Virus record (IMG/VR): IMGVR_UViG_2609459840_000012 | Location: 1-30,027 of that record | DNA length: 30,027 nt | Source: a virus | Lineage: Duplodnaviria > Heunggongvirae > Uroviricota > Caudoviricetes | Reading direction: 5' to 3' (one strand) | Shown: positions 13,590-14,809 of the stretch, in pieces | Layout of the letters: the number at the start of each line of letters is the position of its first letter | How positions within the stretch are numbered: the first letter of the stretch is position 1 | Notes under the pieces: generated by a model | What the model was told of the DNA's origin: nothing | The model's input: the letters and a program-made list of their open reading frames with translations, nothing else | The model's database searches: none | Translations under genes and position numbers: made by a program

Positions 13590-14809
13590 ATGAACGTGAA
13601 CTGTCCATTATCCGTGCGCTGGGCGAAGAATTCGCTGCGGTGCTGGCGGATTTACAGCGCACATTTGAGGGGAAAATAGCCGCGCAGGCACAAGCGTTTG
13701 AAGAGAAACTGGCTTCCCTGTCTGTGGTATTACAGAAGCATGTGACGGTGGATGAGGTGCGTCCGGTTCTGCAGGCGATGGTGGATGACGCTGTGGGGGC
13801 CATCCCGGTACCGCGTGATGGTCGTGATTACGATCCGGAAGTACTGCAGAAGGCGGTGAATGATGCGGTCGCAAATATTCCGCAGCCGGAGGACGGTAAA
13901 AGTATCACCCCGGATGATGTGCGTCCGATGCTTGAACAGATGGTGACAGAGGCAGTGAGCCATATTCCTGTTCCGCGTGATGGTCGTGATTACGATCCGG
14001 AAGTACTGCAGAAGGCGGTGAATGATGCGGTCGCAAATATTCCGCAGCCGGAGGACGGTAAAAGTATCACCCCGGATGATGTGCGTCCGATGCTTGAACA
14101 GATGGTGACAGAGGCAGTGAGCCATATTCCTGTTCCGCGTGATGGTCGTGATTACGATCCGGAAGTACTGCAGAAGGCGGTGAATGATGCGGTCGCAAAT
14201 ATTCCGCAGCCGGCGGACGGTAAAAGTATCACCCCGGATGATGTGCGTCCGATGCTTGAACAGATGGTGAAGGAGGCGGTAAGCCATATTCCTGTTCCGC
14301 GTGATGGTCGTGACTATGATCCCGATGTTCTGCAGAAGGCGGTTCTGGATGCGGTGAGTGCCCTGCCGGCTCCGCAGGACGGGCGTGATGGCACGGCACT
14401 GGAAATACTCCCCGCCATTGACGATCAAAAATCCTTTCCCCGGGGCACGTATGCCACACACCAGGGCGGACTCTGGCGGGCGTATGAAAAAACGCACGGG
14501 ATGCGGGGATGGGAATGCCTGGTTGACGGGGTGGCTGATATTGACGTCAGCATGACGGGTGAACGGTTGTTCTCTGTGGTGGTCCGGCAGAGCAGTGGCC
14601 AGCGTACGGAAAAAACATTTTCCCTGCCGGTGATGCTCTACCGCGGTGTGTTCAGAGCCGGTGAAACCTACCACCCCGGCGATACGGTGACGTGGGGCGG
14701 CTCGCTGTGGCACTGCAACAGTATGACCGGTGATAAACCCGGAGAAGCTCATTCATCAGGCTGGATCCTGGCTGCAAAACGTGGGCGGGATGCTGGAGGC
14801 GGAAAATGA
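13586..14809 (+). CDS. Tandem-repeat structural protein (407 aa): coiled-coil N-terminus, 3.6 x 54-aa repeats, globular Trp/Gly-rich C-terminus; possible head decoration or scaffold-like protein
   Basis: ATGA overlap with the portal stop and with the next gene; repeat unit IPVPRDGRDYDPEVLQKAVNDAVANIPQPEDGKSITPDDVRPMLEQMVTEAVSH. Confidence 0.65.
   Translation: MNERELSIIRALGEEFAAVLADLQRTFEGKIAAQAQAFEEKLASLSVVLQKHVTVDEVRPVLQAMVDDAVGAIPVPRDGRDYDPEVLQKAVNDAVANIPQPEDGKSITPDDVRPMLEQMVTEAVSHIPVPRDGRDYDPEVLQKAVNDAVANIPQPEDGKSITPDDVRPMLEQMVTEAVSHIPVPRDGRDYDPEVLQKAVNDAVANIPQPADGKSITPDDVRPMLEQMVKEAVSHIPVPRDGRDYDPDVLQKAVLDAVSALPAPQDGRDGTALEILPAIDDQKSFPRGTYATHQGGLWRAYEKTHGMRGWECLVDGVADIDVSMTGERLFSVVVRQSSGQRTEKTFSLPVMLYRGVFRAGETYHPGDTVTWGGSLWHCNSMTGDKPGEAHSSGWILAAKRGRDAGGGK
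13802..14400 (+). repeat. 162-bp tandem repeat, about 3.6 copies, copies 1-3 nearly identical
   Basis: Copies at 13802-13963, 13964-14125, 14126-14287 and a diverged partial copy from 14288; in-frame coding repeat. Confidence 0.9.

Follow-up and report, generated by a model that had tools for sequence, protein, structure and literature searches.

A phage gene with an array of nearly identical 162-bp repeats follows directly after the portal gene in IMG/VR virus record IMGVR_UViG_2609459840_000012 (Duplodnaviria; Heunggongvirae; Uroviricota; Caudoviricetes). The analyzed stretch comprises positions 1 to 30,027 of this record and is called the window here (30,027 nucleotides, one strand, 5' to 3'); the open reading frame (ORF) that carries the repeats is termed ORF2. 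Comparison with relatives indicates that the repeats reside in a separate, conserved gene and not in a piece of a broken portal gene. Tentatively, its product may be considered as a low-copy accessory protein tethered to the portal, i.e. a positional analogue of MuF/SPP1 gp7. The predicted architecture of this protein is adhesin-like and its genetics point to the portal.

Position and family of ORF2

A sequence-only reading of the window had placed the repeats in a structural gene between portal and head-tail connector, and Pfam matches on either side of ORF2 confirm this location (Table 1). The same reading had regarded a position after the portal as unusual, but it turned out to be the conserved place of a very large family. 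An exhaustive search for homologues yielded 5,480 representative clusters (50% identity) at E-values of at most 0.001, among them 653 at 1e-30 or below. The 149 best representatives range from 85 to 1,237 amino acids (aa) with a median of 403, their repeat number varies widely, and a portal domain is present in only one of them. Also in the window the Pfam and NCBIfam scans place the portal domain wholly in 12225–13589, and none of the NCBIfam models matches ORF2. Beyond the crown region this portal protein continues with a disordered linker, and its C-terminal end is a short amphipathic helix.

In a set of 80 loci, with one genome per species and covering Enterobacterales, Pseudomonas, Burkholderiales, Rhizobiales, Sphingomonadales and others, the homologue stands right after an HK97-type portal gene in about 70, with stop and start overlapping by 1–20 nt. 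Four loci (L138, L156, L162 and L163) are without a clean portal neighbour and are uninformative due to spurious ORFs in high-GC DNA. The conserved order of the module is TerL, protease–capsid fusion, a small ORF, portal, ORF2, adaptor and head-closure protein. An adaptor-like gene follows ORF2 directly in 59 of 83 loci, and in most of these 59 it overlaps the ORF2 stop by 4 nt. Upstream of ORF2 the ATGA overlap with the portal stop implies translational coupling of both genes; since the ATG of ORF2 overlaps this stop, ORF2 is probably made at about the level of the portal. The polypeptide encoded 5' of the portal (10076–12013) combines a Peptidase_S78 protease, a coiled-coil region and a major capsid protein of HK97 fold, and this fusion has the same place in almost all loci with the repeat gene.

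Genes of the ORF2 type adjoin two portal families, namely HK97-type and lambda-family portals. The latter case is represented by Oceanospirillum phage PD0307 (L170, 2293–5056), where the gene for a repeat protein is located after a lambda-family portal (PF05136) and before the protease. The N-terminal helix and the repeats of this protein are homologous to ORF2 (hhalign probability 99.4%). It also has a collagen-like segment, and its C-terminal domain (PHROG 8270) is unrelated to that of ORF2. As this repeat protein stands beside a different portal family, the adjacency tracks the portal. In the deposited annotation of PD0307 the lambda-family portal is named “putative capsid protein” and the repeat protein “portal protein”.

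Split and fused alleles

An alignment of the junction reveals that portal and ORF2 of the window differ from the fused gene of Escherichia coli O157 by a single G, with GGGGG (G5) in the former and GGGGGG (G6) in the latter. In the window, where the G-run has five G, the frame of ORF2 is -1 with respect to the portal and ORF2 is not contiguous with the portal domain; its frame is open from 13550 and thus across the G-run. The original ATG of ORF2 is kept in the fused alleles. The split form is found in phages BP-4795 and 1717, in Salmonella phage FSL SP-016 and in Pseudomonas phage PAJU2, and the fused form, as one long ORF, in phages 2851 and YYZ-2008, in O157:H7 Gim1-1 and in TUM1857. Database labels reflect both forms. 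In Gim1-1 one intact “portal” gene of 2,580 bp covers both parts, PHROG 2271 is a “portal protein” profile of 859 positions of which ORF2 matches positions 455–859, and the stand-alone PHROG 1289 bears a borrowed label “portal protein”. In the nearest relative, E. coli PM4-5 (99.9% identical), the Prokaryotic Genome Annotation Pipeline (PGAP) merges the portal ORF and ORF2 as “phage portal protein, frameshifted”. ORF2 is thereby handled in RefSeq and in relatives as the C-terminal half of a portal protein, which the sequence-only reading had not noticed.

Among 82 E. coli-type junctions from IMG/VR loci and phage records, G5 occurs in 52 on 10 junction haplotypes and G6 in 30 on only 2. A search of 5,426 complete E. 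coli genomes for the exact junctions gave 752 records with G6, a number possibly too high owing to the clonality of O157 genomes, and 366 with G5; some genomes carry both. Both alleles are found on otherwise identical 52-nt junctions, and 26 pairs of loci whose flanks agree to 99.5% or more have G5 in one member and G6 in the other, where some differences in draft assemblies may be homopolymer sequencing errors.

Outside E. coli the fused form is rare. Only one of the 80 species-level loci shows it, namely L113 from Pantoea. The Pantoea fusions P0314/L113 have 1,237–1,243 aa and about 40% identity; P0314 comprises a portal domain (50–379), about 25 repeats and a C-terminal domain as in ORF2. 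The closest relatives compared nearly all retain the ATGA overlap, and the N-terminus MNEREL is conserved in them as well, whereas a G-run of at least five is found in only 3 of 27 junctions (the window and two relatives), the rest having AGAGGA or similar. Because about 70 of the 80 species-level loci are split and the ATGA is kept while the G-run is not, comparison identifies separate, translationally coupled genes as the ancestral and usual state. On the same comparative grounds the label “frameshifted portal” is an annotation artefact that originates from abundant fused alleles. A programmed frameshift as a feature of the family, either at the G-run or at the A-run that precedes the stop, was considered and rejected as the G-run is not conserved; no slippery sequence is conserved across the relatives in the 27 junctions compared.

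A particular case is phage phi330 (vB_EcoS_phi330, PV189401.1, L088 1540–3020), a plaque-forming Pankowvirus. Its deposited sequence has G6 and, upstream, a CT insertion by which the portal is terminated 30 codons early; a further frameshift detaches the C-terminal domain of ORF2 from its reading frame. Unless the Sanger assembly contains errors, both features would be dispensable. If the deposited sequence is accurate, the ORF2 protein would be dispensable in the laboratory.

Repeat array and variation of copy number

Tandem Repeats Finder (TRF) detected a single array at 13811–14343 with period 162, 3.3 copies, 97% matches and a score of 996. The three full units have pairwise nucleotide identities of 99.4%, 96.3% and 96.9%, and an identity of 96–99% across 162 nt is far beyond chance. 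The near-identical tandem repeats reported by the sequence-only reading are thus real and its count of three such copies stands, but the “one diverged copy” proved to be two diverged half-units that flank the array. Its description of the 54-aa unit as two related 27-aa halves holds. These halves, VPRDGRDYDPEVLQKAVNDAVANIPQP and EDGKSITPDDVRPMLEQMVTEAVSHIP, share a pattern in which a PxPxDG linker succeeds a short amphipathic helix, with a nucleotide identity of only about 32% between them. An ORF on the reverse strand (13730–14752, 340 aa) was rejected as an Arg/His/Pro-rich shadow of the repeats, since both the homologues and the coding GC pattern (GC1 0.71, GC2 0.43) are on the plus strand.

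ORF2 has 3–7 units in 80 E. coli-type loci. Lengths of 353, 405/407, 461, 515 and 569 aa in E. coli-type ORFs correspond to 3, 4, 5, 6 and 7 units and were found in 19, 48, 9, 1 and 2 loci, respectively; phage records also hold shorter forms of ORF2. Moreover, 66 pairs of loci with at least 99.5% identical flanks differ by 1–3 units, including the closest relative of the window (L001) if compared to L066 and L067. The copy number thus differs on near-identical backgrounds, as in a variable-number tandem repeat (VNTR), and both the recent expansion and the variable copy number that had been suspected from the DNA alone are borne out by this comparison of relatives. In E. coli the median identity of units is 96.3% within loci versus 93.2% for first units between loci, which fits homogenization and turnover by unequal recombination; the C-terminal domain of ORF2 is 96.7% identical between E. 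coli loci. A test for concerted evolution by the best match in the own locus (12 of 234 units) was uninformative because many loci are near-identical, and TUM1857 (H23) was discarded as a near-identical relative with one unit fewer since it is only 93–96% identical.

A second tandem array is located in the side tail-fibre gene (27763–28956, Pfam phage_tail_N and Collagen) at 28243–28686, with periods of 9, 45 and 135. It encodes collagen-like G-X-Y repeats and is probably variable in length as well.

Predicted protein architecture

The sequence-only reading had postulated a coiled-coil N-terminus and a Trp/Gly-rich C-terminal domain. Structure prediction gives a helical N-terminal region and this C-terminal domain, both confidently, with predicted local distance difference test (pLDDT) values of about 90 and 93. 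The C-terminal 152 residues form an all-beta domain (pLDDT 93.3) with the small beta fold of carbohydrate-binding modules (CBM) of family 5/12. The corresponding Pfam match (CBM_5_12, PF02839, aa 357–378) reaches 20.8 bits and remains under the gathering threshold of 26.2. Viral structure library matches of this domain include collagen-like, ChiC_BD and tail-fibre proteins, and in relatives the C-terminal part is matched by tail-fibre families of PHROG. It is the best-conserved part of the protein across distant hosts.

After the N-terminal helix the full-length model contains eight helices of 13–17 residues with 12-residue linkers, predicted with low confidence; the pattern of helices and linkers suggests an oligomeric or flexible stalk. 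This stalk is acidic, with an isoelectric point (pI) of 4.4, and the C-terminal domain neutral. Runs of five or more consecutive G-X-Y triplets occur in 43 of the 149 representative relatives, mostly in the stalk, and also in PD0307, and these runs suggest trimers; no run of five or more triplets is present in the ORF2 protein of the window. An adhesin-like protein with a length-variable stalk, as formerly supposed, is therefore in agreement with the architecture (CBM fold, 3–7 units), whereas a capsid-wide version of the decoration protein supposed along with it is unlikely for a low-copy gene chain.

In a profile search of solved structures nothing was hit beyond the C-terminal module and no fibritin was found. 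The repeat region matched only designed helical-repeat proteins, which was attributed to composition and periodicity and not to homology, and sub-threshold Pfam matches of the helical repeats (FliG_N, TetR_C_35 and DUF4244) were disregarded.

Table 1. Features of the window with coordinates, strand and basis of assignment
Feature	Position	Strand	Basis or remark
Gam (Mu-like)	1750–2280	-	
MuB (Mu-like)	3633–4565	-	
MuA (Mu-like)	4637–6724	-	
Ner-like (Mu-like)	6727–6957	-	
Helix-turn-helix (HTH) repressor (Mu-like)	7142–7687	+	
Fused prohead protease and major capsid protein gene, 645 aa	10076–12013	+	Pfam Peptidase_S78 and Phage_capsid; PHROG 617
HK97-family portal gene, 454 aa	12225–13589	+	Pfam Phage_portal PF04860, 7.6e-80; TIGR01537, 3.7e-107
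G5 run	13570–13574	+	G5: portal and ORF2 separate; G6: in-frame fusion, ~860 aa
ATGA overlap of portal TGA (13587–13589) and ORF2 ATG	13586–13589	+	Sequence
ORF2, gene of the portal-coupled repeat protein, 407 aa, 44 kDa, pI 4.8	13586–14809	+	Matches PHROG 1289 and PHROG 2271
N-terminal long helix, aa 3–52	13592–13741	+	AlphaFold2 full-length model, pLDDT ~90; presumed anchor/oligomerization element
Diverged B-type half-unit, 27 aa	13727–13807	+	5' of array; 56% nt identity to B-type halves
Full 162-bp (54-aa) units, protein register	13808–13969; 13970–14131; 14132–14293	+	TRF and identity matrix
Diverged A-type half-unit	14294–14374	+	Closes array; 73–74% nt identity to A-type halves
Conserved C-terminal domain, aa 264–407	14375–14806	+	All-beta, Trp/Gly-rich modules, CBM5/12 (chitin-binding-domain) fold
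gp6-like head-tail connector (adaptor)	14806–15132	+	Pfam PF05135; start overlaps ORF2 stop by 4 nt

Putative role in the virion

We suggest that the N-terminal helix may tether a low-copy virion protein to the flexible C-terminal tails of the portal, most likely at the crown side inside the head, where it could correspond in position to MuF/SPP1 gp7 or act as a portal “barrel” provided in trans. Assembly into trimers would be probable because collagen-like G-X-Y runs are present in the stalk of many relatives. Unequal recombination or slippage would change the number of units and make the stalk longer or shorter, and a single-G indel in the G5/G6 run toggles the protein between a free form and one covalently fused to the C-terminus of the portal. 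The sugar-binding-like domain may act after its release during infection, e.g. on glycan strands of peptidoglycan. The protein is probably accessory and not essential.

The link with the portal is drawn from the translational coupling together with the independent portal fusions (E. coli G6 alleles and P0314/L113) and the gene order in PD0307. Portal C-termini sit in the crown, in the capsid interior, so that a fused protein would be internal and an exposure at the surface would conflict with in-frame fusions to the portal C-terminus. Internal prohead proteins (MuF/gp7, protease, scaffold) are the usual products of genes that directly succeed the portal gene, and portal–MuF fusions are known. 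Phage 2851, one of the carriers of the fused form, is reportedly infectious. The conservation of the C-terminal domain across very different hosts agrees better with a constant ligand or partner than with a tip that determines the host range; between E. coli loci it also exceeds that of the repeat units (96.7% versus 93.2%).

Several points weigh against this internal, portal-tethered protein. Its domain content, with collagen-like and lectin-like features, looks like that of an external fibre; collagen-like segments of phages are otherwise known from external fibres, and the CBM5/12 fold is common to tail-fibre and tailspike proteins. The acidic stalk is not typical of internal proteins that contact DNA, and in the AlphaFold2 model the stalk region has pLDDT values of only 42–57. 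A Pfam scan at E-values up to 0.1 gave no match of ORF2 to the MuF domain (PF04233), so similarity to MuF/gp7 is missing at this level. Fusions may be merely tolerated, and with the ATG kept in the fused alleles free protein might still form; clonal O157 genomes may cause G6 alleles to be over-counted. Finally, no virion proteomics or structure of any family member was found in the literature. Publications on PAJU2, Ab31, Pseudomonas AH14a, MD8, phi330, FSL SP-016 and PD0307 concern unrelated head modules or contain no data on the ORF2 protein, and in Ogura 2015 the portal is not discussed.

The strongest alternative, close to the adhesin supposed from the sequence alone, is an external fibre at the neck or portal vertex, which we consider rather unlikely. 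Here the helix would anchor a trimeric segmented fibre (whisker or adhesin) at the junction of portal and adaptor outside the capsid, in the manner of T4 fibritin at the neck; a surface glycan or the fibres of the phage itself would be the ligand of the CBM5/12-like tip, and the repeat number would set the reach. Besides the fold of the tip, the structure library and PHROG matches to fibre proteins, the G-X-Y runs of relatives and the acidic stalk of variable length, it is favoured by the different C-terminal domain of PD0307, which indicates that the domain is swappable, and by the additional coupling of ORF2 to the downstream adaptor gene. A covalent fusion to the portal C-terminus is however incompatible with an outside location, and fused alleles are frequent and known from named phages. 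Furthermore, the C-terminal domain is most conserved across hosts and shows no diversification in E. coli, unlike a receptor-binding tip, and in PD0307 the gene lies between portal and protease, i.e. among prohead genes.

Quite improbable is a capsid-wide decoration protein or a factor that is needed in assembly only (e.g. a chaperone of portal incorporation) and is absent from mature virions. The location in the head module just 5' of the adaptor is a frequent place of decoration genes, and an essential role is not evident, given the out-of-frame C-terminal domain in the deposited phi330 sequence. Yet the ATGA-coupled chain of portal, ORF2 and adaptor encodes low-copy proteins throughout and misfits a protein needed in hundreds of copies, so a capsid-wide decoration is unlikely; in an assembly chaperone the conserved lectin-like domain and collagen-like segments would be unexpected, and fusion to the portal would carry an assembly-only factor into the particle.

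For a programmed -1 frameshift or phase-variable switch at the G-run, specific for E. coli and producing a deliberate mix of short portal and fusion, the chances appear very small. G5 and G6 on identical junctions in hundreds of genomes each, sometimes in the same genome, the 26 pairs that differ only in the G-run and the frame of ORF2 that is open across it would all agree with such a switch; against it, most relatives have AGAGGA instead of a G-run, a canonical X XXY YYZ slippery heptamer is missing in the portal frame, 5–6 G are short for efficient slippage, and some differences between draft assemblies could be homopolymer errors of sequencing. The RefSeq/PGAP view of a single true portal of about 860 aa with a repeat-bearing C-terminal extension, in which the window would hold a frameshifted pseudogene, can draw on the PGAP annotation of PM4-5, the long ORFs of O157 Gim1-1, TUM1857 and phages 2851 and YYZ-2008, the PHROG 2271 profile and the many G6 junctions of complete genomes, but it is largely refuted by comparison and hardly credible any more, as most E. 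coli-type loci are split, on many more haplotypes, and the split form is nearly universal elsewhere, the ATGA overlap and MNEREL are kept among the closest relatives compared, stand-alone homologues number thousands with a portal domain in one of the 149 best representatives, and ORF2 itself is without a portal domain.

The portal-tethered accessory protein could also be extended to a broader, speculative picture, which we regard as unlikely in its entirety. The family might represent an unrecognized widespread class of variable-length, probably trimeric fibres that are tethered to the portal crown inside the head, similar to a barrel or internal core in trans. They would possibly be ejected, with the CBM5/12-like domain gripping cell-wall glycan during delivery of DNA, and the G-run indel of E. 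coli would serve as a switch between free and fused forms.

Context of this copy and significance

A Mu-like transposable prophage is inserted in terS of the lambdoid prophage, and its repressor end makes up the first part of the window (1 to ~7935), with the junction at ~7925–7936. Homology to intact terS starts at ~7936, so the remnant at 7936–8354 lacks about the first 150 nt on this side. In the 3' part of terS (8234–8287) a 27-bp unit is duplicated (85% match) and encodes a Lys/Ala/Gly-rich stretch. The Mu-like element is described as “inserted Bacteriophage Mu-like phage” in two Shiga toxin (Stx) phage records and is present in 248 of the 5,426 E. coli genomes. Owing to this insertion the lambdoid prophage with the repeat gene is probably defective for packaging, and the intact ORF2 of this copy would consequently say little on current selection. 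A gene for an outer-membrane protein of the Ail/Lom family (27099–27698; PF06316, 1.7e-115) is located between the J-like tip and the side tail-fibre genes, as in lambda.

The results concern annotation, biology and typing. Thousands of prophage genes, including those of Shiga-toxin phages, that are labelled “portal protein” (or “frameshifted”) represent a distinct gene. The family has thousands of clusters across Proteobacteria and a fixed place in the head/neck module. Either location of a lectin-like fibre, inside the head at the portal or outside at the neck, would add a new part to the picture of the HK97-type virion. Repeat number and G5/G6 state, both of which vary between near-identical backgrounds, are fast markers for typing the many similar prophages of O157 and other Shiga-toxin-producing E. 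coli (STEC), and they are assembly hazards as well.

Comparison with known systems

A close parallel is MuF/SPP1 gp7 (PF04233), including portal–MuF fusions. Both genes are found right after the portal and both are occasionally fused in frame to the portal C-terminus; both products are likely of low copy number, with a variable C-terminal domain, and probably non-essential. The two differ in that ORF2 has no sequence similarity to MuF/SPP1 gp7 and is fibre-like, with 27-aa repeats, a CBM5/12-like domain and collagen-like segments in relatives, and in that the internal location of its product is putative. The fused G6 alleles also resemble portals with the C-terminal barrel of P22 type, as a long helical region extends the portal C-terminus. 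In contrast with this barrel, ORF2 is mostly encoded in trans and has tandem repeats and a terminal globular beta domain.

T4 fibritin (Wac) shares with ORF2 an N-terminal anchor, a segmented helical stalk with short linkers, a small C-terminal domain and a gene beside those of neck proteins. However, there is no sequence match, the C-terminal domain is CBM-like and not a foldon, and fusion to the portal is irreconcilable with an external whisker. If compared to the CBM5/12 domains of ChiA1, ChiB and ChiC and their tail-fibre carriers, ORF2 stays under the Pfam gathering score and its modules are embedded in a larger beta domain of 110 residues. With surface-fibre VNTRs, such as the collagen-like array at 28243–28686, ORF2 has in common that its in-frame repeats are nearly identical and vary in number among close relatives, but its unit is a 54-aa pair of helix-plus-linker modules and its gene is coupled to the portal instead of the tail.

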